Positions 35,966 to 63,000 of a stretch of DNA of 64,000 bases are shown here, one piece after another. Each line of letters begins with the position of its first letter. Position 1 is the first letter of the stretch. The DNA is from a virus (taxonomy: Duplodnaviria; Caudoviricetes), in IMG/VR virus record IMGVR_UViG_3300012983_000031, positions 128,001 through 192,000 of that record; one strand, 5' to 3'. The position numbers were made by a program, and so were the translations under genes. The notes beneath the pieces are model-generated. The model had not been told where the DNA came from and did no database searches. It was given only the letters and a program-made list of their open reading frames with translations.

Positions 35966-36649
35966 AAGTACTCCATAATTATATTTCAAATTGCTTCCGT
36001 GACATATCGGCGATATATTTAGACGACAGTTATAATTCTCCATATTCAACACAGCTGAATACATGTCACGGGTTTAGGGTCATCCTTCAAAAAAAGGTGA
36101 CCCTTTTTTATTTGTGAATGATTCACAAAAAAGGATCGCCAGAGTGTAGCGATCCAATGTTCGTTAGATTAAGTTTCCACATGGTTTCCAATCTGCGATG
36201 AAAGTTTTAGAAATGGATTCTAACAATGGTGGAATCGGTTTCTGGAGTTCGCTGTTAACATTTGTTAACTTTTGAACCTCGGTTGTTTGTTTAACATCTG
36301 TTAACATTTCAGTGTTATCACCTATTAAAATATGTTTATAAATGTTAATTTGTTGCATTGTATTTGGTAGTTAAATCTGTTGCAAAGTTACATCGAATAT
36401 TTTATATAGAAAAGAAATTGTATGATGAATGTTCAATTTCACATTTGTTAACAAACGTGTTTGCGTTCAGTAATGTCAATGACATTACTTATTTTCGATA
36501 ATGTCAATGACATTACCGAACTCCAGCGAACACCACACATCTCTCATCGTATGGGTGCCACGCATTTTGTAATGTCATTGTCATTACCAAAGTTGGATAA
36601 ATAGAGAGATATACAAATGTGTATATTATATAATGAGTAGAAAATAAAG

Positions 36650-37045
36650 ATGGAAACAGAGATAAGTAAATATTGGAGAACTGAGTTAGGTCGTGAGTTC
36701 AGGGCAAAGATACTTAATAAGATAGGAATGTATGCGGAGAATCTTGGAGTTCTTGACGTTCTCGATGGTAGGAAATATCATGCAAGTTTTAACTTAAGTT
36801 CAGTAATAGCAACAATAATTCCGTTGAGTATGTCATGCAACATGTCTTCACGAAAGGTTTCGTTTGTCGCTTATATAAATGTTGACGGGCATGTGAATAA
36901 GTCTGGAGAATGGATTAGGGATAATATTGAACTTTTTGATACACAGTTAAATAAAATCAATACAGATATTGTTTGTGTTAACAGCCTTTTGATATTACTC
37001 GACTGTTTGCATACCGCTGTGCAGACAAATAAAATAATAAAATGA
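36650..37045 (+). CDS. hypothetical protein
   Basis: ORF after ATAAATA. Confidence 0.55.
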   Translation: METEISKYWRTELGREFRAKILNKIGMYAENLGVLDVLDGRKYHASFNLSSVIATIIPLSMSCNMSSRKVSFVAYINVDGHVNKSGEWIRDNIELFDTQLNKINTDIVCVNSLLILLDCLHTAVQTNKIIK

Positions 37046-37138
37046 TGGCAGTTAACAACATTTAACACAAAATATTTTGTAGTTACATATATTATGCTTA
37101 CCTTTGCAGATGAATTAAAAACAAAAGCAATTTGAATT

Positions 37139-37999
37139 ATGATTATCAACAAATCTTCGGATAGTGTTTACGTCAGGGGAAGACAGGAGGTTCTTTTCAG
37201 ATACCTCAACATGTTCAGAAAGTATAAGCCCCTAACTTTTGAAAAGGAGAATGAGTACATCACCAGATACAAGGTTGATGGCGATTTGAATGCAAGGGAC
37301 ATGCTGATTAAGTGCAACCAGCGTTTCCTTTATTCTGCTGCGAAAAGGTTTTCAAGCGATGCGGAAACCATTCTCGACCTCATTGATGAGGGAAACCTTG
37401 GTCTTATAGAAGCCATTGAAAAATTCGATTTCACCTTTGGCGTTCGTCTTCTTTCCTACGCACAGGCGTACATATCAAGAAATATGGTGAACTACTTCTG
37501 TAACGACAGGATGATAACTCGACCGATGGATACAAAAATCGGTAGCCGTGTTGCTAACGAACGTAATATCTTTTACAGCATCTATCAGCGTGAGCCAACT
37601 TATGATGAACTTCGTGACATCCTTTACAAGAAATATGGCATTGACGTAAAGTCAGATGATGACCTTTCACAAAACAGAGTTGTTCGCATTGATGATCCAG
37701 TTTTTGACGGTGAAAATTCATACACGGTTGAGAACACAGATGAATATCTTAACGCAACGAACTGCTACAACGATTACGACAAGACGATAGAGCAGGACAA
37801 CACAAAGGCTATTGTTCTGGCGGCGTTGAACAAGATTAACCCGAAAGAGGCTGAAATCGTGAAGATGCGATACGGTATCGGTTATGATCACGAATACATG
37901 CCTTGGGAGATTGCAAGCGTGTACAATGTCACTGAAACCAGAATACACCAGATTGTGGCGAAGGCAACAAAGTCGCTCGAATATGTTATGACAGCATAA
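37139..37999 (+). CDS. sigma-70 family RNA polymerase sigma factor
   Basis: Region 2 NQRFL..AK..DLIDEGNLGLIEAIEKFD..GVRLLSYA; region 3 REPT; region 4 HTH EIA..TETRIHQI. Confidence 0.88.
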   Translation: MIINKSSDSVYVRGRQEVLFRYLNMFRKYKPLTFEKENEYITRYKVDGDLNARDMLIKCNQRFLYSAAKRFSSDAETILDLIDEGNLGLIEAIEKFDFTFGVRLLSYAQAYISRNMVNYFCNDRMITRPMDTKIGSRVANERNIFYSIYQREPTYDELRDILYKKYGIDVKSDDDLSQNRVVRIDDPVFDGENSYTVENTDEYLNATNCYNDYDKTIEQDNTKAIVLAALNKINPKEAEIVKMRYGIGYDHEYMPWEIASVYNVTETRIHQIVAKATKSLEYVMTA

Positions 38000-38045
38000 T
38001 GATACAATAACATAATGTTTAATAAAAAAAATACAGAAACGATTA

Positions 38046-39821
38046 TGAGTCAAAAAAACAAACAAAGCAAAAGCAAGAAGCAGTATGCGGATAATTTTTA
38101 TTATCCGTTTGTGAACCCGAACATTACTTACGGATTCTACAAGACATCGGAAGGTGATATTCGCAAGTCGAAATTCATCAAACTAAGTTTTCAAAGGAAA
38201 GATATTTATCACGCCGAAAACTCAAAGAGCGTTGTGTGCAAACTCAAATGTTACCTTTCATTTAACGTTCCAGATTTTATGGTTACGGAAATGATGAAAT
38301 TCACATCCTTTGAGGTTACAGGTGTTGCAATCTGTTCGGATGATGACACATTTGAACTTAACAAGGGAAAACTTATTGCCAGCGCAAAGGCGGAAAACGA
38401 GGCTTATCGAGTGGCAAGAAACATGTTGAAGACGATGCTCCAACAGTATGAGAACTTCCTTATTGGAGTTCGATCCCAGTTGGATATGTTTGAGTCGTTC
38501 AGCAAACATAACAACGATTTCATTGAAAGAGTTGTCGCTGAATAAGATAAAGGGGGATCTGTGATTCCCCTTTTTATTTTTCCTTTGTTAACATAAATTA
38601 ACAATAATAATTTGCTCATGTCAAATAAAGTTCGTATATTTGCATCAAATTTATATTGATTATGGTTACAAAGGAAATGATTGAAGAACTGAAGAAACAG
38701 GCAAAAGAGAAACTGGCTTACAAAAAGGCTCATAGAAGGGAGTTGATTATTAAGCACTTACAAGAAATGATGCCTTTTGATGATGAGCATATTTCAACGC
38801 CGCCTATTATTGATAAGGAAACGTATGATGAATATGTCATTCCTAACTTCATAAGGTGCGGTGCTATACCATCTTCTCAACTTATTGTTGGAAGAAAATA
38901 CTACGGCAGTTGCAGGAATGCGAGTGAAGCGGTCTGGCTCGGTGACAAGTTTGAATATAAGCGAACTAAATTCGGCTCAACATATACAGAGAAGATTAAC
39001 AACTTTGACAACGATGACGGTTACGATCTTTTCGTTCCAATTCGTGAAATAAAAACAGAAAATAATCCATAATATTTTTTGAAAAATAAAATGGTAAAGA
39101 ATTTGAAAAAGGAACCGAAAGACGGTGACATTCTGGTGCTAAAGAATAATCATAATATAATTTACAAATACAACGGAAATTATAATGGTTATGCGTCGTT
39201 CAAATACAATGCGTTTCATGTAGCACTTTGCTTTTGGGGAGAAAATGATGTTCCTACGGTGACGCATAAGGAGCATGACACAGAGGTTGTTTCCTACGGT
39301 GCTGAATGGGAGTTCGCAACTGATGAAGAAATAAAACGTTTTAATGAAGGTCTGGAACTTGCAACCGATCAAAAGTTTCGTGAACATGTTTATGAAAATG
39401 TGGATAATATTGCAGAGTTAATGACGGAACTTTATGAAATTGATACTGATGATGAAAGAATTAAAATCGTTCTGGACACAATAAAGTCAGGATGGATTGA
39501 AAAAATAATTAAAGATAAAGATAATTTCAAAAAATTAAAGTAGTTATGGAAAACGTTATTTATAACCAAGCATCCCAAACGTATATTGATACGATTAGAT
39601 CAATTAAGGAGGAATACAAAGAAACTATAAAGAAGATGGATGAAATCATCAAGGAAGCCTCCTTGAAGAAAGAGTTTTATGTTTCTTTTACAAAGAACAA
39701 TTTCCCTACAATCGAAGAAGATGCAAAATATCTTAAGATGTATTACATAGCAATGGGGTTCAATGTTGATTATTACATAGCGGATGTTAAAGGATCAACC
39801 CTTGTTATCAAGTGGAAATGA
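38046..39821 (+). CDS. four hypothetical proteins (38046-38545, 38662-39072, 39091-39543, 39546-39821)
   Basis: Co-directional ORFs in promoter-terminator units. Confidence 0.6.
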
Positions 39822-40076
39822 GTTCATTTCAATGTCTTTTATTTTTATAAGTTGGTGGGATCGCCGAAAGGCGATCCTTTTTTTGTTGATGCCGAGGCAG
39901 AAATCTGTCGTCAGGCGTGGTTTGATAATGTCAATGACATTACTTAAATTAAGTTGATGGAAAAATATTATTGATACGTTAACATCATTTAACCAAAATA
40001 ATTTGTCAGTTCAATAATAAATTTGTAACTTTGCAACATAATTCAATAAAGTATAAACCAATAAAACAAAAACAGA

Positions 40077-41220
40077 ATGAAGAAAGTTATAATCAATGCA
40101 AGTATGGCGAATGCGCTTGATAAGATTGCAACACGGTCAAAGATGAATGACTGGTTCATAATTCACACAGATGAAGAACATAACCTGTATGTGGATGTGG
40201 ATGATGTAATAACTTTGTTTGAAGGTGCAACAGAATTTGATCTATCTGCACTTAAAAGTATTGATGTATATAATATCATCGAACTTTTTTTGCGTATTCA
40301 TAAAAATTAAATAGAAATAATATGGAAAAGATTTATATTGTGATAGATGAAATCAAACGCAGATTGAATAATCTTGAAAAATGTAATACGGATAACCCTT
40401 TAATCAAACAGGATATTGGGTGCTATAAAAGTTTGCTTACGTTTATTAACTCCTTATAAAAATAAATTATGGGTACAACATTTTTTCAGGCATCGACGAT
40501 TTTGAAACACAAATTTCAGATGTGTACAATTTCCTGAACAACTGCAAGGAAACTGTAATCAACTATCTACGCAGCAAGGGCGGAAAGATTGAACTTTCTC
40601 CAATAGAGCAAACGAACTTCAAATTTTGCTTTCAGGAAATGGAAGGATTCTACACCGTAAAATCAATCGAACTCGACAAATCAGACGGGTATGTACTTAT
40701 CGTTGAGTCAAAATCAGGCGACACATACATAATCGCAGAGGATATTTTTCACACCGATCTCTACATTCAATCAACGATTATTGATAAAATTTTGAAGGAT
40801 AAATAACAAAAACATGTAACAATGAAAGGCGATTTTAGTATTTATATGGATGACCAAACAAAATTGTTTGGAATATCTGACAGCGACGGAAACATCATCG
40901 TTAACGCAAAATATGACTCTCTTAACGACATGGGAGAACTTTACACTATGCTCGTTCTTGGAGAAATAGATAAAATGTCAATTCCTGACAAGGAACAATG
41001 GCTTGAAGATAACGAAATCGAAACGTTAAGAGTGTGTGAAAACTGTGGCAAACTGATGCACGAAGGGTACACGCTCGCTGGCGAACACGCTTGTTCAGAT
41101 GAATGCGCAATCAATCTTTATGTTGACAGGAACGGAAACGTGCTGCCTAACGCAGAGGAACTGTTCAATGAGGACATCGAGAACAATGGTGATGATTGCT
41201 ACTGGACTGCATGGGAATGA
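40077..41220 (+). CDS. cassette of small hypotheticals (40077-40310, 40322-40459, ~40469/40522-40806, 40822-41220)
   Basis: Promoter near 40025, terminator near 41300. Confidence 0.55.
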
Positions 41221-41522
41221 AAATAATTTAGTTTTAATATGTTTCATTTCTTGAAAGGATAAACTACGTTTCATAATGATAAAAAACATTTTACATTTGC
41301 GGATCATCGAAAGATGATCCCTTTTTTTGTTGTGCTTCAATAAGTTAAAAATAAAATGCGTAAATATGGTAATGTCAATGACATTACTAAAACGCAAATC
41401 CTGGTGTTAACAAACGTTAAGAACCAATCACTGGAGTTCGACTTAACACCATTTAACAGAAATATTTTTGCCATGTCATTTTTTATTCCTACCTTTGCAG
41501 ACGTTTTTCAAATTAATATAAT

Positions 41523-42137
41523 ATGGTACTTACAACAAAATTTATCGAAGACAATTTCAGAAGATTTAATGCAGATTATTTTGACGGAAAACTTATAACA
41601 CCTATGTTCGCAGTAAGCAATAAAAAGATGGCGTTCGGTACATTACAGGTTGGCAATAAAAGATCGACAAAAGAAGTCACATATAAAATGAGTGTATCTG
41701 ATTACTACATAAGAAGCGAACAGGATATTCAGAATACAATCCTTCACGAAATGATCCACCTTTACATAAGACAGAACGGTCTTCGTGAAAGGGGTGATGC
41801 GCATGGTAAACTTTTCCAGTCGATTGCTGATAAGATAAATAAGCATGGTTGGAATGTTACCACAAAAACATCATCCAAGAATCTTGTTCCAAAAACAAAA
41901 ACGCTTTATAATATGGTCGCATTCATTGATGCAAACGGAAAACCGTTTCTAATGCGATACAGCAGAACAAAAAAGTCTAACTTGATACGTTGGTTTATCA
42001 AACAGGGTGTTGACGACAATAGCGTTATATGGTTTGTTTCAGATAACATCCATTATGACGGCTTCCCTTTGTGTGTAAAAAGAATCAGGGGAAAGTACAT
42101 CAGTGATGATGAATACAACGGCATTAAGAAAAGTTAA
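41523..42137 (+). CDS. SprT-like zinc metalloprotease
   Basis: TILHEMIH...AHG..F. Confidence 0.8.
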   Translation: MVLTTKFIEDNFRRFNADYFDGKLITPMFAVSNKKMAFGTLQVGNKRSTKEVTYKMSVSDYYIRSEQDIQNTILHEMIHLYIRQNGLRERGDAHGKLFQSIADKINKHGWNVTTKTSSKNLVPKTKTLYNMVAFIDANGKPFLMRYSRTKKSNLIRWFIKQGVDDNSVIWFVSDNIHYDGFPLCVKRIRGKYISDDEYNGIKKS

Positions 42138-42208
42138 CTAAAATATTTTGTTCAATACAAATAAAAGCGGTAACTTTGCAACAAAATAAAACTAAACATA
42201 AAACAATT

Positions 42209-45200
42209 ATGGGAACAAAAGTTTATTTCATTGAATATACTGGAAACCACACAGGGACACAGTACAACGATGATTTGGTAGGCATTGCCTTAAGTATGAC
42301 AGACGCAATCAATCTTATGTTTGACATCATACAACATGATCGGGAACTGTACGGAAATTTCATCAGCACAAAAGAAATGATTGAAGAAGATCGAAAATAT
42401 TTCCTGTCCGCTGGAAAAATGGATGAATATATCCGTTCGACAAAAGGTTACAGTTATACAGATGAAGCAGGAAACGTTAATAATGTATTGGGGTATTTCA
42501 GTTTCCGTATAAAGGAAAAAGTTATCTTTATAGGTAAGTATCAGGAAGACTGACCGATATCTTTAACATCATTTAACTAAAATAATTTGGTTATGTCAGA
42601 ATAAGTTCATAACTTTGCATCATCAGAATAAAAAATAGTATTAACCAACAAAAACAAAAACAATTATGGATAGTGAACTTATTTTCAACATGGCGGCGAA
42701 CAAAACAGTTTCCGAGATTAACAAGATGTATAATTACAGGAAACTCATTGACGATGTGCTGCCAGAAGCAATCAGGATGTACCTGTCAAGAAACTTGATT
42801 GATACGAATGAAAATAAAAAACTGTATTGCAGCATTTGCCTTGAAGGTGATGCACAGGGTCTTTCGTCGCTTGAGTTGCCAGAGGTTAAATCAATATGGC
42901 AAGATCCAGAAGAAGGAATAATATGGCTCGACATCTACGGTGCTGAACAGCCAATAGAACTTGATGACATTTATCTCGAAGATCAACTTTTAATCGTTAA
43001 CGAATTGAAGTTCGATGACAACAAAAATAAAATCCATTTCGTCAACGATAGAAGCGAAACACAACGTGGTGTTAAGTTGAATGACGGTCGTATCGTTTCA
43101 TTGTATGATGAAAATAACCAGTTCTACCTCCGTTTCGATGATGTAATCGATCTTGAAAAAGGAATTATTGTTTCTGGCTCAAAAGGCGTTCACCAACCAG
43201 AGTTGACAAAAGATGAACTCGCAAACGGTTACACTACGCTTAACAAACTCATTCGAGAAGGAAAGGCTGAAAAGGAAGAAGTTCATTGTTACGATGAATG
43301 CAGTTATGATGCAAGTGTGTGGCTTAATGAATATGAAAATGATTCAGAATGTATTGACATTAATGAAATTATTGATTATTTTGCAGAACATGGGTTCAAC
43401 GTTACCAAAGAAGCGTTGCAGCATAACATTGATGCGTGGAGTTCTGATTTCAAGTCAGGTTATCGTGATGATGAAAACGGCTATCATCTTTTTACACCGT
43501 GCGGCTGCAACAAACTTTCTTTCAAAGCAACATCACTTGATGCTAACTGCATCACATGGCAGTCAACATACGAAGTTTAACATTTTTTACTAACCAGAGG
43601 GTTGGGTTCGCCTGAAAAGGTTTCTGTTCTCAACCCTCATTATTAAAAAACATTATGGACATTTGAACGAACACGGCAAAAGTATTTTTGATAAAAGTTT
43701 TGACGATTAACATTTTTTAATCAAAATAATTTTGTCAGTTCAAATATTATCTGTAACTTTGCAACAGAAAAATAAAAAATAGTATCAACCAACAAAAACA
43801 AAAAGCAGTATGACTACAACATTGGAAAATGGAACGAAAATCGTTTCGAGTGTACTTACAGAAGACCAGCATAACGCTGCCGTTGAAATCATTAAAAAGA
43901 ACCTTCGCACGAACGGAAACTATACAGCCGTTGAAGCAGATGAAGAAATGGTGAAGGAGTGGGCTAAAAATTACAATGATGAAAGTGTTCTATTAAACGA
44001 TGCACTTGAACATTACGGTGACGTTTTCACCCTGATGGATCAAATCTCCTATGGTTTCGCACAACCTCTTGGTGAATTTGTCGTTTATTAATAAACTAAA
44101 AATCATACAGTTATGACAACAAAACAACTTATTGCCAGAGTCAAAAAGTACTTTCGTGTTAATGGTTCTATATCTCTAAAAGGTATGTCAGTTCACGAAA
44201 TGACACAAGGTATGGGAAAGATGATCAATCTCGACAGGCTTTGTGTGGATGATAACCAACTTGGAGTTATGGCTGTACAGAACTCATGGTTTATTCCTCT
44301 GGAAGAACTTACATTCAGCGAATTAAAGAACGTTCTAAAACATTTTTAAGAAATGAAAGTAGTAAAAAAGCATACAATATCTGATTTGACACACGAGAAT
44401 CTCGTGGATTTGTTCGCAACCGCCCTGTATGGATCGTCTTACTTGTATGCGTATTATGACGATGTGTTCTACAACTCATTGCCAGATGACAAAAAGCAAG
44501 GTGATTGTCTTGAAGACAAACTTGCAGACACCCTTTTGAACGGCGGAGAAATTTATTTTCTCGACTCCTATGCAGAAGGTGAACTGTACGGCGAACTCCA
44601 GAAAAAGGAAATTGTTGAAAGCGAGGATGGCTGCGAGGATGGCAAATACACTTTGACCTTGAAGGACATCATTGAAGGTCTGGAACATGCGGCGAACGGA
44701 ACGTATAAAAAATATAATGAGGATGAAGATTATGGTGAAACTGCGTTCGATTATTATGCCAAAGATTCCTCGGCATTTGATTTGACAGAAGCAGACATTC
44801 TCATTCAAATCATCCTGTTTAATGAAGTCGTTTACGGATAAGAATGAATGTGATATAAATAAGTCAAAGATCAATTAATGATGGGAAGGCTCCACAGCGG
44901 TGGATAAAGCCTTCCCTTTTTTTTGTTGTGTATCAATAAGTTACAACAAAGATTAAGACTGAATAACGTTGACAGGGGGTACCCGCAAAGTAATGTCATT
45001 GACATTACCAGTTCTGAAATGGTTCCAAGTTGGAACCAATTAAATTCAAATTATTAACAAAATTTAACTAAAATAATTTTGCAGTTTCAAATATTGTTTG
45101 TAAATTTGCATCACGATTAAATAAAGTATAAACCAGCAAAAACAAAAATCATTATGAGTAAGGTATTAAACAACACAGTCAGGTTCTACGGATACGGCAA

Positions 45201-46913: not shown

Positions 46914-47024
46914 ATGAAATATGTTAACGAATGTTAACACCAGGAGGACAACTCTGGTAATGTCAATGACATTACTTGAAATTCGTCGCTGACGCGTTTT
47001 TTAATCGACACCTGTACAACTTAC
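46914..47024 (+). repeat. ~111-bp inverted repeat, left copy (partner 58580-58690)
   Basis: Near-identical reverse complements; each copy contains the 19-bp palindrome. Confidence 0.9.
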
Positions 47025-47169: not shown

Positions 47170-48526
47170 ATGACAAAGACTGAAATAATGTACAGGATAA
47201 CCGATACTTTCGGAAAACCTGCAAGCCCGCTACCAAAAAAATGTAAGATGCTGGGCGTAAGAGTGTTCGCAGATAGAACCATTCTGATTGACGGCAACAA
47301 CCAATGCCGAAGGATTGAGTATTACACCAAAGACAAACTCGCCACAATACTTTATGAAATAGGAACTGACAAGGACAGGATCGATCTCCTGATGTCAAAG
47401 AATGTTTCACAAAAGATAGTGGATGACTATCAGAAGATAAAAAAGGATTGTTAATAAATAATGATTGAATTTTTAATTATGAATAATGAGTGTTTTGCCG
47501 TGCAGTTCGTGAGAATAGTACGGCATTTTTACATTCTTTAACTAAAATAATTTGGTAATGTCACAATAAGTTCGTAACTTTGCATTATAAAATAAAAAAC
47601 ATTATGAAACGAACAATAAAGCGAAAACAAAATCTGTACGATGTTGACTGCATATCCGAAGGAGGAGTGTGTTATGTTACACATTTGTTTTGTGACTGGG
47701 ATACAGTTAAATCATACAGGAGAATTGCACGAATGCTCGGCGAAACAATAAGATACGAGAAATCAGGAACTAAAGAATATACATACACATTATAAACCAA
47801 TTAAAAAACAACATCAACTATGACACCAATTAAAATGAACAATGTGGCTAATTACGAAGCAATTTCCGTAACGCTTACACCAGAAAGATTCCCAATCGCT
47901 TACAAGAACAAACTTGAAGAACTCATGGATGTTCAGGCGTTCGATACGATTGAAGAAGCGGAAGCGTGGATCAAGTCAACGCCGATTGAACTCGAACTGT
48001 ATTACGAAAACGGCTACGGGTTGTTCGGAGCAGAAGCGGAAGTAATCGAAGACGGATGGATCAGATCACCGTATTCAACAGCACCAGTTCTGGATGATGA
48101 CGAATATGAAATCGTCAAGAAGCAATCAGACCTGACAACGGATGAAATCGTCAATAAGGCGATTGAACTCGCACGTCAGCACAGATTGAGTGAGTTGAAG
48201 GATTTTGTATGCAACACAATCTAAAAAGGCATAAAAGGATTGAAGGTCATTCTTCAATCTTTTTTTGTGCGAATAAATAAATGGATAAAACAAACACCAG
48301 AAACAATATGGGAAATAGAACTATCAAAGATCTCTGTGGAAATGAATATTTCATACAGGAAGCAAAGGACAAAGGCGGAACATATCTTGAAGTTCACGAA
48401 GTCGTAAACGTGGATGGAAAGAAAATGAAGACATATCTTTGCGAACTCGGAATGTCACTTAAGGATGATGACAACGAAATACTGGATGAAATAGATGATT
48501 TGAAGGCGAAGTTCGTCAACGAATGA
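47170..48526 (+). CDS. cassette-borne hypotheticals (47170-47454, 47604-47795, 47820-48224, 48281-48526)
   Basis: Last + strand units before the convergence point. Confidence 0.6.
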
Positions 48527-48766
48527 CACAGGCGAACGGCACAAACACATAATAACTGGATGATCGATTTCTCGATCATCTTTTTTTGTTCAATGGCAGA
48601 ATCGGCATGGGGTGCCACCCTGTCGGTAATGTCAATGACATTACCAGACCTTCATCCCGTCGTCTTGGTTCGCTCTGGAGTTCGACAAAAAAACAAAAAG
48701 TCCGATCCTGTCATCACGACAGAACCGAACCACAAAATCTAAATACTAACTAAATTATCTAACCGA

Positions 48767-49925: not shown

Positions 49926-50118
49926 ACTGTTATGTATTTTAATCTGATGCAAAGGTACGAATTATATTATAAACTGCCAAAAAATTTTAGTTAAAAAATG
50001 TGAAAAGTTTTGAAAAAAGATCTGGAAAAAATTCTGGAAAAAGTAATGTCATTGACATTACATCGCTGGCGAACTTCACCGATGACTCATATCCGAAACC
50101 TGACAAAATGTCATAATA

Positions 50119-52013: not shown

Positions 52014-52447
52014 AACTGTTTTTGTTTTTGTTGGTTTGTACTTTATTTAATTGTTATGCAAAGTTACGAACTCCATCCGTAACAACCAAATAATTTTAGT
52101 TAAATGATGTTAATCGGATCAAAAAAGTTCGACCATGTCATCACGACAGAGCCGAACCAAAATAACAATCTTCAATTAATCATTAAAAATGGTCTATACA
52201 TGTGCAAAGGTACGAACTTATTTTGAATCCGCCAAATAAATCAGGTTAAAATACGTTAAAGGAATATCATTTTCGTTACACTACGAAAATGGTCTGCGGG
52301 ACAAAGTAATGTCATTGACATTACCGAACTCCTGCGGAAGGCGCACCATGTTGTCTGGAGTTCCTTATCGCACATAAAAAAGTTCGGCTACCTTCACAGG
52401 CAACCGAACACAATTATTTAATTTCAAATAATAATGTACACAAATTC

Positions 52448-52846: not shown

Positions 52847-53193
52847 TGCTTCTTTGTGTTAATTGTGTTAAACACTTTGGTAACAATCATTTCCTCGATG
52901 ATCAAATCGTGGTTGATGTCATCCCAATAGATGTCACGCTTCTGATTGTCTTCATCCACACTTTCCAGATAGAAACTTTTCTTGTCGTTCGTCAGGCGAA
53001 TTGCAAGAGTCGTGAATGTTCCTTCAAGTTCAAGATAATCAAATCTGAACTCATCCTGTTCGTCTTCGTCAAGTTCGATGTCGCCAGTTTCCAGCAACCC
53101 GTCAACGATTGTGTGGAAGCACATGTCGTGAAAATAATAAACAATATCCAATCCGTTCTTGAAATGATTCAAATCCTTAAATACAGTATCCAT
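52843..53193 (-). CDS. hypothetical protein, likely paralog of 40522-40806
   Basis: Shared VY.F...C...G.IEL...E.EG..T pattern. Confidence 0.55.
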   Translation of the reverse strand: MDTVFKDLNHFKNGLDIVYYFHDMCFHTIVDGLLETGDIELDEDEQDEFRFDYLELEGTFTTLAIRLTNDKKSFYLESVDEDNQKRDIYWDDINHDLIIEEMIVTKVFNTINTKKQ

Positions 53194-53282
53194 ACTGCTT
53201 TTTGTTTTTGTTGGTTAATACTATTTTTTATTTTGATGATGCAAAGTTACGAACTTATTCTGACATCACCAAATTATTTTAG

Positions 53283-53837
53283 TTAAATGATGTTAACCTT
53301 CATCTTTTTCTTGTACCATTTAAGCCAGTAGTTAATCGTATCATCAAACAAACTGTATGGTAATGTCGCTTTTTTCACCAACGAACGCCCGTAGTTGTTC
53401 TCTGGATCGTTGACTCCCAAGAACACAATCCTGTCAGAAACATATTCGCCGCATTCATTCATGTAATATGTCGATCCCTTCGGTATGACGAAATCACAAA
53501 TGAAATCATTATTTTCACATGAAAACATCATCACTTCATGCTCGCCATTCTTCGTGCTGCTCACGAACTTTGTATCTGTGCCGTAAGTTTTGCAAACCTT
53601 TCTTTCAATATGTGCTGCGCTGTGAAAGCCGCCATCTATGCCTAACTTAATGTCGCTACGATCTACATATCGGATGTTTTCAGTTCGCACCTCACCGACA
53701 TACCAATTAAATGTTGAATATACAGGTGATGTTAAAAACTTTGAAAATTTGTTCAAAGTTAACACTTTCTTCACCATGATATTCTTCTTCGCAAAATGCG
53801 GAACTGTATGTTTTGTCTTGTTTGTTATCCAGCACAT
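53283..53837 (-). CDS. MCW-family phage protein, paralog 2
   Basis: MCWIT..GFHS..IPKGSTYYMNECGEYVSD. Confidence 0.7.
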   Translation of the reverse strand: MCWITNKTKHTVPHFAKKNIMVKKVLTLNKFSKFLTSPVYSTFNWYVGEVRTENIRYVDRSDIKLGIDGGFHSAAHIERKVCKTYGTDTKFVSSTKNGEHEVMMFSCENNDFICDFVIPKGSTYYMNECGEYVSDRIVFLGVNDPENNYGRSLVKKATLPYSLFDDTINYWLKWYKKKMKVNII

Positions 53838-53843
53838 AATAAT

Positions 53844-54332
53844 TTATTTTTTGTGTAACACATTCTTCAAAATATGATCAATAAGATAATCATCAGCATA
53901 ACGAATATCCACATGAACATCAGTGAACGTAATCTGGTTGGAAACGTAGCCGCCATATTCGTTAATGTAATATTCCGATCCCTTCGGTATAACGAACGAA
54001 CAAATAACATCCGAATACATTTTTCTGAACAAATAATCTTTGTTTCCTTTTTTGTTTACCTGATAAAAAGAATATATTCCTTGATCGGATAGGTGAACCT
54101 GAATTTCATGTGCACTATGGAATCCCTTATCAATGCAGTAGTTTCCATTTTCACTGTATATGCCACCTATTTTTGTTTTCTTCGTTTCACCTATTTTCCA
54201 TCTGCAATCTACAACTGGTGATGAAAACGAATGACTTTTTATGTTATATTGAAGAACCTTCTTTACAGATATGTCTTCATCAGCGACATGCTTAATGGGT
54301 ATGCCGTTTAGTTTGTCAGTAGCCCAACACAT
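53844..54332 (-). CDS. MCW-family phage protein, paralog 3
   Basis: MCWAT..GFHS..IPKGSEYYINEYGGYVSN. Confidence 0.7.
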   Translation of the reverse strand: MCWATDKLNGIPIKHVADEDISVKKVLQYNIKSHSFSSPVVDCRWKIGETKKTKIGGIYSENGNYCIDKGFHSAHEIQVHLSDQGIYSFYQVNKKGNKDYLFRKMYSDVICSFVIPKGSEYYINEYGGYVSNQITFTDVHVDIRYADDYLIDHILKNVLHKK

Positions 54333-55165
54333 ACTAATCTTTTTTAACTGTTAAACATTACGAATCTTTGTCAGTACAGGCGTGAAAGTTGACTCCTCGA
54401 TAACGTAATCGGAGGAACCATGCAAAGAATTTTTGTAATCAACGCATTCCTGCTTCTCTGGTGTCCAGTAAGTTACTGGCGAATATTCCCGTGGGGTAGA
54501 GAAGACCACACGGAAAATCGGTGTCATTGCTATTGGCATCATAATACTATATGTTTTTAACTTTGATAATCCTCGCTCAAAGGTTCTGAATAAACCCAAA
54601 TCTTATCCACGATGTAACGCCTCGTGTTCTTGTGAAACACTTTCTTACCGAATATGTCAGTGAAATCATACACGGCGAACTTCGGCAGTTTAGATATTCT
54701 TCTTCTCATAAATGTTTTTTGTTGGTTAATATTATTTTTTATTTTGATGATACAAAGTTACGGACTTATTTTGAATCCACCAAATTATTTTAGTTAAATG
54801 ATGTTAACACAATAAAAATAGGATCGAACCTGTTTCACAACAGACTCGACCCGTCAAAAAATCTAATAATTTAATACCATGAAAAACACGTTGCAAAGTT
54901 ACAATTTTTCCATGAAATAAAAAATAGGAAAATCCCTATTTCTTTTTCCAAAATAAAATTCAGTAAATTTTACAAAAATAAATTTACAAAAATTCACAAA
55001 AACGAACTACAACCGCTGGCGTTCGTCATCAGTAATGTCAATGACATTACCAAACACCGCACCCGCGCTTTCACATTCGTTAACATATTCAATCAGGCAC
55101 ATAAAAAGGGATCGACCCCAAACAGGATCGACCCCCAGACCATGAGCGAAATATATCACACTTTA

Positions 55166-55828
55166 TCAATCTTCATATTCAATGTTCCAGCAGCAACGTT
55201 TGTAACCTTCAAGACCCTCTACTGATTCCGCAACGGAAATGTTATCGAAAGCCCATTTGCCGACATACTTTGCGTTTGGCTTCGTCTTGAGTTTGCCATC
55301 TATTGTTACATCTGTACAATAATCACCGCCTCCCCTTCCGTTACCGAACGAACACAAGATGGGTAGTGGGTGAATGATCCACTTGTCAGGATCTTCATCA
55401 GGAAACTCAACATACTGCTTCTTTGTGTGGTTGATTGCATACTTGTATTTGAAATCCTGAAAATCACTTACACGATCACAGAGTTCATTATATTCTGGTG
55501 TCTTGCTGTCATCAGAATTTCCGTAAATGAAAACATCTGCCTCGTCGTACACATCAACGCCGCTGTCATCCTTCTTCGTAAGACGATGATGTGCAGTGCC
55601 GATCCGATCAGCGTAATCTCCGCACCAAACGAAGGGAACGCCAGTCTTTTCCGTATCATACAAATCAATCATTCTCAATGCAGCCATGACATAATAATTG
55701 CCGACATAAGAGTGCTCCATCATCTTCGCCATGTTGCCGAAATCGTAAGGCGAAATGGTAGCCATGATGATGCTTTCTTCATCCTTGTAGTTCGGCTTAA
55801 GGATCACCGCCCTGTAATATTGTCCCAT
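55166..55828 (-). CDS. hypothetical phage protein (MGQYY type)
   Basis: MGQYY..KMMEHSY..W.GDYAD..HPLPIL..GNGRGGGDY. Confidence 0.7.
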   Translation of the reverse strand: MGQYYRAVILKPNYKDEESIIMATISPYDFGNMAKMMEHSYVGNYYVMAALRMIDLYDTEKTGVPFVWCGDYADRIGTAHHRLTKKDDSGVDVYDEADVFIYGNSDDSKTPEYNELCDRVSDFQDFKYKYAINHTKKQYVEFPDEDPDKWIIHPLPILCSFGNGRGGGDYCTDVTIDGKLKTKPNAKYVGKWAFDNISVAESVEGLEGYKRCCWNIEYED

Positions 55829-55862
55829 AATTGCTTTTGTTTTTGTTGGTTGATACCTGTTT

Positions 55863-58800
55863 TTATTTCTCGAATGTTATGCGAACGTTGGAAATTTTCC
55901 TTTCCTTAAAATCAATCTCGAAATCGAGGTTTTCCTTAATCCAGTCATCAGGTCGCAATGAATCAAGCGTACCTTCATCTGGCAACTGATATGCACCAAT
56001 GAGTTCATCACCGTACCACATCTTAATTGTTCCTGTGGCATTCTTTTGAGCAAGTTTGTTCACCTGCGAAATGATTAATTCTTTTTTTGTCATAATCTAT
56101 TACATTTTGAAAATCGTTTGAAAAATCGCCAATTCCATGCGGTACGATTATAATGTTTTTATTTATTGCTGCAAAGTTACGTACTTATTTTGACATGACC
56201 AAATTATTTTTGTTAAACAATGTTAATACGAACTTCATACAACACTATTTAACATCCGTTAACGATAAGACGACTTATGGAGTTCGCCTCCTTGGTGGCA
56301 AGTAATGTCAATGACATTACCGAACTGCCTTCAACGGGCGACTGCCGTGAACATGCAAAAAAAATGCCAGACTACCCTCACGGGCAATCTGGCTCTCGTA
56401 AAATTCGATTCGATTATAAAAAAACTTAAAAAAATAATTAATGTATTTCCTTTTCGGCATAAGTTACACAGGCATAAGCACCGCCATCACACGAACGTAT
56501 TTCAGAAATGCCTTCTTCATCCAAAAGTTCGTGTTCGTACTTGTCGCCGTTTTTAACGAACGTGTCTATGATGGAGTGGATCGCATCATTCTTTGCCTCT
56601 ATCACCTTTTCCCTGCTACCGTAAACAGTCGCTTTCGCAGTAGGTGGGAATCCAGCGTAACTTTCAAGAACGTTGAGAACCCATACCTTGCTTTTATCCG
56701 AATCAGGTATAGAAAGCAAACCTTCATCAATGGCATCAGTTATCATGTCCGATATGTCGGAAAGATGTTCGTCGATGCTGTCATCATCAATATACTGGGC
56801 GTTCGGGCAATCACCCAAGAACTGATCAAACGAATCATAAACATAATAACCGCCTTGTTCGCTGCCGTTAAAGTGAGGATTGATCTTCACATCACCGTAA
56901 ATAGTGTTAATTGTCTTCATGCCTGTTTGTTTTTAATTGTTTCGTATAATGCGTTAAGAATCTCCAAAAGCGAATCAACAGAAAGAGAATCTATAAGTAG
57001 TTCTTCAATACACTTTGGTCGCAAAAATATACATGTACTGTCAGGATCGATCCCGTCTTCAAAAACAGGACTCCATACATGCAGACCAGTTACGGGAACA
57101 ATCTTGCCGTTTATAATCGTTGCAACTGGCGTTCGCAAATTCACATCATACTCCATAACGTCTGAACAGTCGCCAGAATCAATTTCATTCAGGCAGATGT
57201 GAGTTATCATGTTCACCGTTTCTTTCCTCAAATCCTTGTATGAGTTAAGTATGTCACCCATCATCAGTTTAGTTTTCTCCTTCATTGTCTTTTGTTTTTG
57301 GCGGTTGATACTATTGTTTTTTAATCACGGTGCAAAGTTAAGAATAATATTTGACATAACCAAATTATTTTAGTTAAATGATGTTAATCAAACCTTAACC
57401 TGACCGCCCTGCATATCCTTTACAACAATATTGAACCTGTCCATGTTCACATCCGTTCCAGTCTGCTCCCAATAGAAATGGCGAACGCCAAACAGAACCC
57501 TTTTCTTGAAATTGCAAACAAGGATCGCCAGATTATTCACATTACCGTAATCCGCCGAACTACCGAACATGATGATTTCCTTGTTAGGCAAATCAACGCT
57601 GAACATGCCGCCGCCAAGAACATTTCGTTCCTCTTCGTCATTAACCAGATCCTTGTGGCGTTCCACCTTTCCGAACCTGAAATCAGGAGTGAAACATGAA
57701 TCGTACAATACTACAAACTTATTGCGTTTTTCCATTATAAAATCACTTTTTTATGATTTACTAAATCCTCGATCCATCCTTCTTCGATTTCACCAAGCAA
57801 GGACAGATACCCCCTTGCCTCCGAAAGTGTCTTGAAATCCATGTACACCTTGTGACGGGCACGACCATCAAGATACTTCTCGCTGTGGAAATCTATGTAA
57901 TGAAGCCTGTATCTCATTTTGTCAATAATCTTATGTAACATCCGCTGAAAGCGGTTCCGTCATCGTTGTGTAATCTCTCTAAAACGTGAAAAGGATAAAG
58001 GGATGCACGACCTTCACTTTGTCTTACAGCCTTGATAACCTGTTCTTTCGTCATTTTCATTACATCACTCTTTTTAAAGTAATCACGGTTAAACACGGCA
58101 ACCTTGTTATCACCGCTGACATCATCGTTCGGATTGTTGTCACCGAACTCGAAAGATTCAACGAGCCATCCGTAATTATCTGAAAGATAATCGGCTACCT
58201 CAAATTCATCCAGTGTGTCGGGAACTTCAACTTCAGTTGGAAGATCGACCTGTTCACCGTCTGTTTCCCATTTAATGTTTGAAATCCTCATAATGATAAT
58301 GTTTTTTGTTGGTTAATACTATTGTTTATTTGTTTGATGGTGCAAAGTTACGAACTTATTCTGACATCACCAAATTATTTTAGTTAAAGAATGTGAATTG
58401 GATCAAAAAAGTTTTCAGGAAAAAAATCTGAAAAACATTTCCAGAAAAAATTCAAGAAAAAATTCAAGAAAAAATTCAAGGCAATTTCTGGAGTTCGATC
58501 AAAATAATATGTTAAACTTTATTAAAATTAATTTTTTGCCGCCAAATTCGCTCTCTGCTGCGTTTTATTTGTTGAGGCTGTAAGTTGCACAGGTGTCGAT
58601 TAAAAAACGCACCAGCGGCGAATTTCAAGTAATGTCATTGACATTACCAGAGTTGTCCTCCTGGTGTTAACATTCGTTAACATATTCCATCAGCGCATGA
58701 AGAAAGGGATCGAACCAAATCGATCCCCCTCGCACATAAACACAAAAATGAATAAAAGAATTTCCCTAATAGTAGATGGTCTTCAAATCAGGATAGCATT

Positions 58801-59728
58801 CCTGCGTTTCATCAACCAGAACGACCTCGCTGATCTCTGTATTGATGTGACCTGCATCCGCATAATCTACACCATCCGCCGCCATCTTCTTCGCAACTTC
58901 AAGTGCTTCATCGTCGCGGCCAGCATAGATGTACTCTGAATCTGGAATGAAATCTGGATCATCTTCTACGCTGAAATCAACACGGTAACATACGTTCACC
59001 TTCATCAGTTCGTCAGCCGAAAAGTTGAACAGAATTGGTTCCTTTGAATTGTCATGGATGTTAACCGCACCGAAAGGTTTACAGTCAACTCCGCCGATCC
59101 TAACGATTCGCCATACGTTCCTGTTATCGAAAACATGCTTGAACGAATCAGGAGTAGCGGTAACATAGTCGCCGACATTGAACCCCGAACACTGCTCGCT
59201 GAAATCAGCCTTATGCACGGTCAACGTGTAGTGCTCATTATTATACTCGCCAGAACGCCAGCATGAAAACATGTTCGGTGTATCAATGAAATCCTCGAAC
59301 TGATCACATTCTGGATCCCAGAGCGAAAACGGCTCCTTTTTATATTTCTCCGCCATCTTGTGGAGTTCATTCTGCGCATCCTTCTCGCTGCCGTACACAC
59401 CGACAACGATGTTGACCACATCACCTGAAAGGTCGTTGACGAAATTCTCCACTAATACAAATACTTTTTTCATACTGCTTTTTGTTTTTGTTGGTTGATA
59501 CTATTTTTTATTTGGTAATTATATACTATTTGACCTTTTTATTTCTTCTTTTGTTGCAAGACGGAATAACTTGCCTACTGATGCTTTCTCTTCTCCGAAA
59601 TCATCATACATACATCCATCTTTATGGCAAACATATATTTTACCTTTTGTAAATGATGTGCCTAATTTTTTCCAGTTCTCTATACAAATGTATGATTTAC
59701 CTTTTTTTACTGTAATATTATTTTCCAT
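55863..59728 (-). CDS. cassette-borne hypotheticals (55863-56093, 56438-56920, 56917-57285, 57388-57735, 57735-57917, 57914-58291, 58766-59473, 59519-59728)
   Basis: ORFs behind repeated promoter-leaders on the minus strand. Confidence 0.6.
58580..58690 (-). repeat. ~111-bp inverted repeat, right copy
   Basis: Reverse complement of 46914-47024. Confidence 0.9.
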
Positions 59729-60038
59729 ACCTACTTTGACGTTTTGGATATAATTGTATATAGTTTCCTTTTATTTTGATGATGCAAAGTTACGAACTTA
59801 TTTTGACATCACCAAATTATTTTAGTTAAACAATGTTAATCGGATCAAATTAATTTCTGGAGTTCGCCCCAGTTCGCCCGTTAAGTAATGTCATTGACAT
59901 TACCGAACTCCAAACAGATGAGGTTATATTTCTGTTATCTGGAGTTCGCACACAAAAAAGGTTCGGCTACCTGTAAAAGGTGACCGAACCAAAATAAGAT
60001 ATTATAAAAAATGTTAAACTTTTGTGTATAATAATTTT

Positions 60039-63000
60039 TCAAACGTTGATGTCCTGCCATTGATCCGTCAGGTCTTCATTTGTGTCAATATCCTCTACCG
60101 ATGTGGTTTCAACGTACTGGCATCCTGAATTTGGATCATACAGACTCATGTATTCAAACTTCAACTTCGCATCTTCAAGCGAACGCCCCTTAATCGTTAC
60201 TTCCGAACGGAAAGTTACCCTGAAAAACGTTTCCTTTGATGGATTTCCGTTTCCCTTAAATGCTTGCAGGGTTTTCTGGAGTTCAATTTCGTCATGTTGG
60301 TCATTAATGGCTTGCAGGATTCTCTGGAGTTCGACTTCGTCAAGTTTGTTGGCGAATATTTCTTCCCCGTCATCTACATTAACGACAATATTCCCGTTGC
60401 CAGTCAGCCAAACGTGGTTTAGCCTGTGGGTGTTTCCGAACGCATCTTCGATGTCGATGTCACTTCCGTGGAAATCAACCATTGAGTTGAGATCCTCCGT
60501 TCCGTTATAGTTGATGATCCTTGATGTTATGTCATTCATAAGATCCTCAAGCCGCTGTATGTCAAATGTACTTGTCATGCCTGTTGTATTTTAATATTCT
60601 TTATTACTCCCTTGTCGTTCGTCGTGTAGATGATTGACAGGATATTCTTTCCGTCTTTGGAGAAGCGGACTATGTTTCCGTCTATCTCTATATTGTAGTC
60701 GGTGAAAAGGTTCTGTGCAGTTTCGATGTTGTAACTGTTGATGTTTCCTTCAACCCCAAGCCCTACCCTATTGAGAATGTCGGTGATGAATGTCTTTAGT
60801 TCTTCCATGTTGCTGTTATTTATTGTTTGGTGGTGCAAAGTTAAGCATAATGTTTTACACCACCAAACAATTTCAGTTAAATGTTGTTAACGAACTCTGT
60901 CGAAAATCCTGTGTGCATTCACCCAGCCCTCGTTCTCGGTTTCCATGCCGTCGGATGAATAGTTGAAATCATCGCCGAACGCCTTCTTAAAGCAGAGAAG
61001 CGTGAGGCACACAGCCACATCATAAGGCTTTTCAGCGGTCTTGCAGAAATTGAAACTGTAATCTTCTGGATCATCCAAAAGGATTGCGCACGTTTCGTGA
61101 GAAAAATCGTTAACGCCGTCATCGTAGCCGTTGAACCACACCTTTGTGTCGCTGAACTCTGGTTCGCCTGTACCCATTCCGCCTGCGAGCCTCAACGGGA
61201 TCAGTTCCTTAACGTACTTCATCTTTTCGCTGTCGTACACATCAGTTTCAACCCTTTCAGGTAACTTTGCGAGGCACTTTTTAAGCAGTTTGACTGCTTT
61301 CTTGAACTTCGTTTCACCATCCTTGATGTCCTTTGGATTCATTGTGAACTTCCAATAATGCGTGTAACCCATAATCGTAATGTTTTTTGTTGGTTAATAC
61401 TATTTTTTATTTTGATGATGCAAAGTTACGGACTTTATATGACATAACCAAATTATTTTAGTTAAAGAATGTTAACTGGATCGATCTTTTTTCACTCGCT
61501 GTCATACAGGATATAAATTATTTTTTCACAGACGGTAGTGTCTTGCTTCTGCCACAGTGAATGATTGATCAAAAATAAGGATGATTCAGTTTTTAGGATC
61601 ATCCTTATTCATTGTTCGGTTTTGTTTTCTTACTCGTATTGGCTGTTCACTTCTTCAAGCCAGTCCTCATTGACGAGATAACTGCCTGATTCTGCCGTGG
61701 CGATCACATTGTCGTCGTAGCCTTCTTCTTCAAATAGATTGGAAAGGTCTTGGCTTTCTGGCCAGTCAATTTTAATCCATGCCACAATGTTTACGTTTTT
61801 TAATTGTTAATAATTGTTTTCCTCATCATCCTCCTCGACAATGGAGTAGTAACGGCTGTCGTATTCATAGGATCTCGTTCCGTCATCCTGTGTTGACGTG
61901 AAATAAGGTTTCCAACATCTGACAAGCCCCCAGTTGTTGAATGATGTGTCATAGTCCTCATTGAAGAAACGAAGCAGTAGATTTTGTGCATCCTTCAATG
62001 TCATTCCCTTTGCAAGTGTGATAGTTGTCTTGCCGTTGAAATGTATGTCCCTCTGTGCAATGTAAGGGTTGGTCTGTCCTATAATCTTGTAACTCATAAT
62101 GCTTTATGCTTTATATTGTCAATACATGGATCGTTCAAGTTTAGCCTTTAATGCCGTCAGAATGTCACCCTGAATGTTATCTGGAAGATCCTCTATCTTG
62201 TAGATAGGATCGATTTCGTCATCAAAATCGATGTCCCTATAATCATAGCAGTATAAAATACCATTGATGATTTCAACCGTATTGGCGACTGAACATTCAT
62301 CATCCGTGTATGATGCGAGATCGATCAGGTACGGAAGGTTAACCATCCTTGCACTGTGTGATTGCAGAATCGACTTTATCTTTTCAAATTTATTCATAAT
62401 GCTTTTTGTTTTTTGATTACAGTGCAAAGTTACGACTATTATATGACATCACCAAATTATTTTAGTTAAATGATGTTAAACCATTTTATTTAAGACAAAG
62501 CGTGTTGAGTAATTCCCTGACCTTTTCCTGATCATCATTTGATCTTGTGCCGACATGCCATTCAATAGCCTCATCGTCATCAAAGTAACTATACTCCTTC
62601 CAGTCATAGATAGTGAACCGAAGGTTGTCATCACTGATGACATCCCATTCCCTTGTCGATTTGTTACCATAATCATCTGGCTTGTAGTAATTAGGTTCAA
62701 GACCCAACTTGCTTCTGATTTCATCAGTTGATGCAAAGATAGTCAAGCCGTGATGTGATGTGCCTAAAACGGCGGAAACGTCTGTTCTCATAATTCAATA
62801 TTTAATAATGTTATTTTATTATAGTGCAAAGGTACGGACTTTATATGACATAACCAAATTATTTTAGTTAAAAGGTGTTAACACGAACTTCAGTGAACCT
62901 TATTTAACATCAGTTAATAATACTGTGACTTCTGGAGTTCGCCTCCTGTGATCTGGCGGTAATGTCAATGACATTACTTGGCAGGCAGCATCCTACGATT

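Follow-up and report, generated by a model that had tools for sequence, protein, structure and literature searches.

A Helically Phased 19-bp Palindrome in the Hypervariable Arm of a Lak-Like Megaphage Is a Candidate Operator of Its Gene Cassettes

Introduction

Auxiliary operators which reach a promoter by DNA looping are known from dimer-of-dimer repressors such as LacI (with O1 and O3 at a distance of 92 bp), GalR, DeoR and AraC, the activity of which depends on a spacing of whole helical turns. The C1 operators of phage P1 form a dispersed operator regulon. In phage phi29, p4/p6 occupies phased inverted repeats located upstream of promoters, where it causes a DNA bend and turns early transcription off. 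KorB/OB of plasmid RK2 (together with KorA/OA) is an example of one protein which acts through a repeated short site on many promoters, some of them distant (PMC11790492). A modular arrangement of early genes has been described for T4-type phages in the form of the promoter-early stem-loop (PeSL) cassettes (Arbiol et al., 2010, PMC2839356; Comeau et al., 2014, PMC4122927). The present study deals with a 19-bp palindrome in a stretch of 64,000 nucleotides of viral DNA (referred to as the window), which comprises bases 128,001–192,000 of the 220,295-bp IMG/VR contig IMGVR_UViG_3300012983_000031. We propose, with a probability of roughly 0.55, that this palindrome serves a dimeric regulator with cooperative binding as its operator, and that this layer was added over host-type early promoters. 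An initial annotation of the window, made from the sequence, had suggested a binding site for a dimeric phage protein and had offered three roles, a global early-gene operator, a parS/matS-like domain organizer and a recombination site for integron-like cassette shuffling, of which the first fits best. Coordinates of palindromes are window positions unless marked as genome positions.

Sequence and Distribution of the Palindrome

The motif was searched with the pattern GTAATGTCAWTGACATTAC, allowing up to two mismatches, and dinucleotide-preserving shuffles served as null. It reads GTAATGTCA-N-TGACATTAC and thus forms a palindrome with a 9 + 1 + 9 layout. All 15 copies listed in the initial annotation were found in the window at exactly the coordinates claimed (Table 1), with 12 of them being perfect and three containing one mismatch (36498, 36569, and 39925), while the shuffles lead to an expectation of 0.00 copies. 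The triple at 36470–36587 consists of three copies which are 28 and 71 bp apart, and the remaining spacings of 1.26–3.6 kb match the 1.3–3.6 kb given before. The motif had not been seen in the first 36 kb either, and indeed no copy is present at window positions 1–36469 or at genome positions 1–164,469.

Mapping of the complete contig, with any base accepted at the centre, showed the motif to be real, but the window to contain only a part of the system. A total of 62 sites, 39 of them perfect, are located on the contig, all within genome positions 164,470–214,386 (window 36,470 to approximately 86,386), whereas the 164 kb before and the 6 kb after this interval are devoid of them. The sites hence occupy one hypervariable arm of 50 kb and are lacking in the other 170 kb. 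As all 62 sites map to this interval, the initial annotation described the sparse left part of a 50-kb domain, which continues past the window end with dense arrays at a spacing of 73–109 bp. The centre base had been given as A or T. This holds for the sparse part, with A or T in 24 of 24 sites up to genome position 201 kb, but any base is possible overall and 26 of the 38 sites in the dense arrays beyond 201 kb have G or C. These centre-base differences may reflect sub-families or affinity tuning. Variants with a CG step beside the centre are confined to the dense arrays beyond 201 kb.

Within the arms, positions −8 to −2 are invariant in 123–124 of 124 half-sites. The 26 variant arm positions are located at the outer (−9) and inner (−1) edges; none is compensated in the opposite arm, 21 break the pairing and five are G-T-like. 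As no variant is compensated, it is the sequence and not a hairpin structure that is conserved. The exact palindrome was absent from all other viral contigs searched, and the matches of the exact 19-mer in metagenome contigs and in 596 Gb of genomes were all singletons, no more than expected by chance. A one-sided outer arm, nnCCWGATCAC, accompanies 21 of the 62 sites at a fixed offset, most of them at genome positions 198–214 kb. As this outer arm contains GATC and the phage encodes a Dam-class (D12) adenine methyltransferase, its methylation is conceivable.

Placement Between Terminators and Promoters

Although approximately 66% of the arm is coding, all sites are located outside plausible genes, and the open reading frames (ORFs) which contain sites are only short or wrong-strand ones. 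Along the direction of transcription, and on both strands, the elements follow each other in the order gene, GC-rich intrinsic terminator, 45–65 bp, palindrome, 92–150 bp, promoter. This substantiates the placement between terminator and next promoter that had been described for the window: seven of the nine strong terminators within 36000–55999 are followed by a site, the other two being compact terminator-promoter junctions without site, and ten window promoters have a site 92–150 bp upstream of their −7 box. For the whole domain, 23 cases with a site centre at this distance were counted. The inter-cassette terminators are GC-rich with T-runs, whereas the palindrome is AT-rich and without a consistent T-run.

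The promoters of the phage are Bacteroidota-type, with TTTG at −33 and TAnnTTTG at −7, which is the same consensus as used in the Bacteroides literature. Cassette promoters form a distinct class, found only at genome positions 165–213 kb, and are composed of an upstream TTAACA-N-TTTAAC, AATTTGG, often a (T/C/A)GATGTCA box, and then TAACTTTGCA. A half-site of the palindrome inside these promoters, as noted in the initial annotation, is present in many of them as [AGT]ATGTCA directly 3′ of the −33 TTTG, and GTAATGTCA is exact at 47555–47563. Looping of the palindrome to the promoter half-site as a general rule was rejected, as half-site and nearby palindrome are not associated: in the window the half-site is contained in four of ten promoters with a nearby palindrome vs. 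nine of 16 without. The half-site may be a feature of the promoter family only. The TTGACA within the palindrome was considered as a −35 box and dismissed, as the host promoters are Bacteroidota-type and its strand is independent of gene direction. A resemblance to the Fur box was also rejected on account of the spacing, which is TAATG-N5-CATTA in the Fur box and TAATG-N7-CATTA here.

The same placement could be expected of a boundary or architectural element, the bound protein of which serves as a roadblock or insulator between units, or bridges sites into loops in the manner of matS/MatP, Noc or ParB/KorB. Such an element would fit with the strict confinement of the sites to one domain, with their position 45–65 bp past terminators in both orientations, with single sites at convergent junctions without promoters, and with the observation that only the first promoter past a terminator has a site while many internal promoters do not. 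Palindrome-loaded KorB can, moreover, silence distant promoters (PMC11790492). However, a roadblock needs neither a promoter register nor phased arrays upstream of promoters. The sites known as matS, NBS and SBS are mostly located inside genes, the palindromes never, and a marker of the matS/MatP type is placed with disregard of genes and promoters, whereas the palindromes are domain-restricted, yet intergenic and promoter-phased. Also the convergent site at 48626 looks like a rearrangement-truncated module, in which the palindrome and its linker run with CTGGAGTTCG straight into an inverted terminator. Neither ParB nor a MatP-like protein or SMC loader was found to be encoded on the contig (60% complete). 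An architectural element appears unlikely, although it is the main rival of the operator, and the parS/matS-like option of the initial annotation gains no support, as the sites are tied to promoters instead of being scattered and no ParB or MatP-like gene was found on the contig.

The Palindromes in Related Phages

The contig (referred to as G000 where it is compared with relatives) is 60% complete according to CheckV, with approximately 40% of the genome missing. Its portal protein is approximately 44% identical to the portal of Prevotella Lak megaphages and 70–75% identical to those of the uncultured contigs G001 (164 kb), G002 and G003 (364 kb). G001 is the closest relative, a sister phage with a 75% identical portal, and the completeness of G002 is 94%. 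DNA of the phage is present in bovine gut metagenomes of several studies, and the contig contains 15 tRNA genes as well as genes for a UvsX-like recombinase, an NAD ligase and a family-B polymerase. The phage is a Lak-like megaphage of the cattle gut with Bacteroidota-type promoters. Nucleotide searches of the palindrome region against a phage collection gave no match, and there was no RNA run among the sequencing runs listed as containing the phage.

In the sister phage G001 a word count brought out another palindrome, CAATTCCA-W-TGGAATTG, with 20 copies within the final 6 kb of the contig. They are organized in arrays of 2–4 sites which are 93 or 103 bp apart, and the proximal site is located 91–105 bp before the −7 box of a cassette promoter. 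The palindromes of both phages share AAT..CA-W-TG..ATT. The placement has hence been kept while the sequence changed in concert in all copies, a pattern which is expected of an operator and its cognate protein evolving together. A 14-base search for the G001 palindrome gave only chance singletons among the matches listed.

A de novo palindrome scan, which recovers the motif in G000 as a positive control, found nothing in G002, and the arm of this phage has no inverted-repeat family of any kind. Yet G002 does possess a comparable arm at 270–301 kb with its own conserved cassette promoters and a sigma homologue. As arm and promoters exist there without palindromes, the palindrome layer is a lineage-specific addition to an older cassette-promoter architecture. 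No high-copy palindromes were present at 21 loci in related phages around a multi-copy family which flanks the domain (see below), and five further relatives had no AAT..CA.TG..ATT sites. The repeat ACCTTGNGTACC of G002 was examined as an analogue of the palindrome and rejected, as it appears to read in frame as a collagen-like Gly-X-Y coding repeat. A very large array of GGTACACAAGGT- and GGAACTCAAGGA-type words, several of them in 20–77 copies, occupies 185.8–197 kb of G002 (L038–L039) and, with Gly-X-Y in frame, probably encodes a giant collagen-like repeat protein.

Helical Phasing

For site-site spacings of up to 330 bp (n = 28) the Rayleigh statistic is highest at a period of 10.5 bp (R = 0.61, p ~ 3e-5). 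Distances between the centre of the proximal site and the −7 box (n = 23), which amount to 92, 95, 102–104, 107–116, 124–125, 132–134, and 150 bp, peak at 10–10.5 bp (p ~ 1e-3). When both genomes, G000 and G001, were pooled (n = 58) a period of 10.0–10.25 bp with a phase near 0 was obtained (R = 0.58, p ~ 4e-9). Tandem Repeats Finder detected no periodic repeat of 70–110 bp, and the array spacers are mostly unrelated in sequence. This indicates that the array spacing is kept without copying.

These spacings also bear on the idea that the palindrome acts as a nucleic-acid structure. At the RNA level it could be a hairpin which acts as back-up terminator, stabilizer or processing site; at the DNA level it could be extruded as a hairpin or cruciform, as in the hairpin promoters recognized by the virion RNA polymerase of phage N4. 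As RNA, the 19-mer is able to form a hairpin with a stem of 8 bp and a loop of 3 nt (−6.8 kcal/mol, z = −3.8 vs. shuffles). However, the spacing tracks the helical repeat of duplex DNA, the sites are located downstream of strong terminators, and the variant positions described above lack any compensation and mostly break pairing. Furthermore, the 62 copies share one sequence and the 20 copies of G001 another, and a symmetric element with unconserved flanks would not give a promoter any direction. A function of the palindrome as a folded structure is accordingly very improbable.

Cassette Modules and Recombination

The segments from palindrome to promoter are dispersed paralogous modules with identities of 70–88%. 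When the modules are aligned, the 19-mer shows as little variation as the −7 box, whereas the linker sequence is unconserved and its length varies in steps of approximately 10 bp. The homology between modules ends at the terminator-side edge of the palindrome: of the 23 alignments, eight stop exactly there and 15 no more than 3 bp away. The palindrome might consequently be a seam where a site-specific enzyme or PeSL-like homologous exchange adds, removes or inverts cassettes. Besides the edge of homology, this idea is favored by an inverted pair of modules at 46957 and 58629, by the hypervariability of the arm, which has almost no genes in common with G002, and by the PeSL modules of T4-type phages, which mediate such shuffling (PMC2839356, PMC4122927). 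The inverted pair is a repeat of 114 bp (46911–47024 and 58580–58693; 94.7% identical), with each half being centred on a palindrome, and brackets 11.6 kb including the switch of gene orientation from + to − at approximately 48.7 kb. It suggests a past inversion.

On the other hand, no integrase, resolvase or invertase was found in Pfam scans of the contig ORFs, and a perfect 9 + 1 + 9 palindrome cannot accommodate the staggered core, of 2 bp or 6–8 bp, which serine or tyrosine recombinases use. Homologous exchange neither needs an invariant 19-mer nor would it keep one amid modules which have drifted to 70–88%; promoter modules without palindromes are equally repeated, and the helical phasing would stay unexplained. 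As paralogous modules begin exactly at the palindrome, homologous shuffling of the PeSL kind stays plausible, but that recombination is what the palindrome serves is quite improbable. The integron-like option of the initial annotation is not supported, as no integrase or resolvase was found in these scans. Moreover, attC sites are imperfect and variable with an asymmetric core and belong to promoterless cassettes, whereas the sites described here are perfect and unvarying, with only 1 bp at the centre, and each cassette is equipped with a promoter and a terminator. In four bovine runs, the Logan contigs (0.2–2.4 kb) contained joints with sides of 21–47 letters, which lie in repeated promoter/palindrome sequence and hence are silent on recombination; several of the contigs span the sites at 41369, 46957, 52306, and 55032 unchanged.

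A REP/BIME or MITE origin was rejected as well. Such elements are imperfect palindromes with a RAYT/Y1 transposase, target duplications and variable internal sequence, whereas there is no internal sequence between the arms here and no Y1 transposase was detected in the Pfam surveys; only a TnpB was found (15515–16789). The word GGCGAACTCCAG and its complement CTGGAGTTCG(C) recur in inter-cassette gaps, at 36–64 kb of the window and beyond. They often form an inverted pair in the linker between palindrome and promoter, directly before TTAACA, and are also found just past terminators.

Search for the Binding Protein

Pfam scans covered 117 ORFs of the right arm and 90 further ORFs of up to 420 aa. 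They revealed two sigma factors, Dam-class and EcoRI-class methyltransferases, a TnsA-like endonuclease and a small WYL_2 protein. The latter was rejected as a candidate binder, as it is absent at the syntenic position in G001. A T5orf172 hit was not relocated by a six-frame search. Genes common to G000 and G001 but absent from G002, as well as the genes bordering the triple site, gave no informative family in Pfam or PHROGs. For P176, one of the border gene products, no homologue was found among 5.8 billion proteins, and the single-sequence AlphaFold models of P176 and of its neighbor P131, with a mean pLDDT of 54 and 39, respectively, are unreliable.

Alternatively, a host protein might read the site, that is, a Bacteroidota transcription factor or nucleoid protein which is exploited by the phage, with the deviating palindrome of G001 pointing to a different host. 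The host-type promoters would be in line with this, as would the fact that no phage-encoded DNA-binding regulator was found. A 13-bp core of the palindrome was, however, not enriched over a control pattern in 301 Bacteroidota genomes (at most three per genome), which is a weak argument as the true host is probably unsampled. The chance level of exact sites in the 596 Gb of genomes mentioned above also speaks against a host site, and G002 does without the palindrome. A host protein as the reader has therefore only a small chance of being correct.

Proposed Mode of Action

We favor the view that a symmetric dimeric protein reads the palindrome on double-stranded DNA. Dimers at neighboring sites would share one face of the helix and be in register with the promoter of the next cassette. 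With shared face and register, cooperative binding and contact with the transcription complex or a promoter-bound partner become possible, the contact being made through a short DNA loop of 8–13 helical turns. One protein could in this way control the approximately 30 transcription units of the 50-kb early accessory arm. As the promoters match the host consensus and the arm of G002 lacks palindromes, such control would be a negative or timing layer and not an obligatory activator. We lean toward a shut-off or insulating role of the regulator, i.e., an added layer which would shut off the early arm and possibly insulate cassette from cassette.

The dimeric binding protein postulated in the initial annotation is well supported, if indirectly, by an invariant 9 + 1 + 9 sequence without compensation, strictly intergenic sites, helical spacing and the concerted change in the sister phage; its encoding by the phage is what we infer beyond these observations. 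Of the three roles suggested, the global early-gene operator agrees best with the data.

Several findings weigh against this proposal. No helix-turn-helix, ribbon-helix-helix, ParB or other classical regulator was detected by the Pfam scans of 207 ORFs on the 60% complete contig, and the genes which qualify as binder by their position encode ORFans, the models of which are of low confidence. Approximately half of the cassette promoters are without a palindrome within 160 bp, while the sites at 48626, 78952, and 80351 (the latter two beyond the window) lie between convergent terminators without a promoter. The missing association of half-site and nearby palindrome in the window has to be counted here as well, together with the occurrence of the ATGTCA half-site in promoters outside the domain. 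With regard to the phasing, the paralogy of the modules makes the distances not fully independent, and their narrow range leaves the estimate of the period broad (9.5–10.75 bp).

If the palindrome is an operator, the 19-mer could be used as a bait for a master regulator, and it would help to delimit transcription units in uncultured phage genomes. It might also provide a portable orthogonal operator/regulator pair for Bacteroidota genetics, with G000 and G001 already representing two specificities. That the specificity differs between these sister phages makes it possible to test whether lytic megaphages diversify a regulatory "immunity" as temperate phages do, and the phased operator gives a handle on timing and modularity of the arms of small early genes in huge phages. 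These genes probably serve host take-over and anti-defence.

Left Border of the Domain and Neighboring Genes

The positions of palindromes and associated features in the window are compiled in Table 1.

Table 1. Palindromes and associated features, with coordinates in the 64,000-nt window.
Feature	Position	Strand	Remarks
Palindrome copy 1	36470..36488		perfect; first of triple at left domain border
Palindrome copy 2	36498..36516		1 mismatch, position −9 G>A
Palindrome copy 3	36569..36587		1 mismatch; 9 bp upstream of GATAAATA late-type motif (36596–36603) heading P131-sigma-P176 operon
Sigma-70-family factor	37139..37999	+	regions 2 and 4; in first operon behind triple palindrome
Intrinsic terminator	39857..39878	+	example of terminator closing a cassette just before a palindrome
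Palindrome	39925..39943		1 mismatch; 47 bp past terminator 39857–39878; centre 92 bp before −7 box of promoter 40002–40033
Palindrome	41369..41387		past terminator 41301–41320; 112 bp before −7 box of promoter 41467–41497
Palindrome	44990..45008		102 bp before −7 box of promoter 45078–45108
Palindrome	46957..46975		150 bp before −7 box of promoter 47092–47123; in 114-bp segment paired with 58629 module
Internal cassette promoter	47551..47582	+	exact half-site GTAATGTCA at 47555–47563; no palindrome nearby
Palindrome	48626..48644		between convergent terminators (+ 48558–48581, − 48731–48699); no nearby promoter; followed by apparently truncated module linker ending in CTGGAGTTCG
Palindrome	50043..50061		past minus-strand terminator 50154–50126; 95 bp before −7 box of minus-strand promoter 49950–49981
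Palindrome	52306..52324		past minus-strand terminator 52409–52382; 103 bp before −7 box of minus-strand promoter 52205–52236
Palindrome	55032..55050		past minus-strand terminator 55136–55107
Palindrome	56302..56320		132 bp before −7 box of minus-strand promoter 56172–56203
Palindrome	58629..58647		inverted near-identical partner of 46957 module
Cassette-class promoter (example)	59785..59816	−	−33 TTTG; GTGATGTCA half-site box in spacer; −7 TAACTTTG; TTAACA..TTTAAC element ahead
Palindrome	59885..59903		102 bp before −7 box of minus-strand promoter 59785–59816
Palindrome	62959..62977		134 bp before −7 box of minus-strand promoter 62827–62858; one-sided outer arm CGCCAGATCAC (62947–62958)

The triple site at the left border of the domain is located between a divergent promoter of another class, which is without the TTAACA element, and the motif GATAAATA, which heads here the operon of P131, the sigma factor and P176. 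This motif exists in 43 copies genome-wide. As 28 of them are found just upstream (8–57 bp) of ORFs, mostly in the genome part with structural and replication genes, it seems to behave as a late-type promoter of the phage, similar to those of T4. It is nearly absent from the palindrome domain, with the exceptions of the copy before the sigma operon (36596–36603) and one (40798–40805) before the gene at 40822–41220, which is the one arm gene common to G001. Homologues in G002 are almost completely lacking for the genes from approximately 139 kb to the contig end; the palindromes are hence located in a hypervariable accessory arm of small ORFan genes. Recognizable arm genes are few and encode the sigma-70-family factor, SprT-like, GP88-like and Api92-like proteins, and glycosyltransferases.

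Two sigma-70-family factors are encoded by the phage, the one of the arm (37139–37999), which has a homologue within the arm of G002 (282412–283212), and an ECF-like one (regions 2 and 4_2) at genome positions 1–153 kb. ORFs of the latter region also encode an EcoRI-class adenine methyltransferase (E = 7e-115), a TnsA-like endonuclease N-terminal domain, an RE_endonuc domain and ThyX. A TnpB/IS605-OrfB-like protein of 424 aa (window 15515–16789, +) with a Cas12f1-like TNB domain and HTH_OrfB_IS605 has a homologue in G001. A multi-copy family of proteins of 130–175 aa (phrog_10841) flanks the domain at its dense-array end in G000 and G001; it is widespread in related huge phages, where it was surveyed at the 21 loci mentioned above. 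Its copies are located at L012:5589–6116 (−), at L013:2954–3433, 4446–4832, and 5056–5445 (+), at 145.6–157.2 kb of G001 and at approximately 308.1–308.4 kb of G002.

Comparison With Known Systems

Among the described systems, the PeSL cassettes resemble the arm in that conserved terminator/promoter modules of approximately 100–200 bp flank ORFans in hyperplastic regions, that the promoters are host-type early ones, and that the modules are dispersed repeats which are able to recombine, with indels or mini-circles as products in the case of PeSLs. However, the only dyad of a PeSL is the stem-loop of the terminator, whereas here a separate terminator is accompanied by an extra 19-bp palindrome before the promoter, and this palindrome is helically phased, often arrayed, and changes its sequence between sister phages.

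With the operators of LacI, GalR, DeoR and AraC the palindrome shares the dyad symmetry and a distance of approximately 80–130 bp, in integral helical turns, from the promoter, as well as presumably the cooperativity at separated sites. Yet these repressors use 2–3 sites in one operon, compared to 62 sites and approximately 30 units here, and have a strong promoter-proximal operator where the phage offers only a candidate half-site. KorB and C1 are similar in having a short palindrome or fixed site repeated across the element and in the global control of many operons, which would also apply to the regulator proposed here. The copy number of the palindrome is, however, several-fold higher, and no C1-like gene and none of the ParB family, whose members combine ParBc with HTH and usually have a ParA partner, was detected in the 207 ORFs scanned; moreover, KorB is a sliding clamp for which phasing is unneeded, while the arrays described here are helically phased. 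Phased inverted repeats upstream of promoters are found in phi29 as well, but there in a single control region with four sites, in contrast to one site type which recurs along an entire 50-kb arm, and none of the proteins encoded on the contig was recognized as p4- or p6-like.

It is a tentative idea, more doubtful than probable, that the palindromes and their binder make up a dedicated early-arm control system new to the literature. One ORFan protein would nucleate on the palindromes and from there assemble along a single face of the helix, thereby insulating dozens of accessory-gene cassettes and switching them in synchrony. Its specificity would have been reset between the sister phages as in heteroimmunity, so that co-infecting relatives could not control each other's arms. 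In terms of known kinds of systems, the finding adds to both the phage operator regulons and the PeSL-like cassettes.

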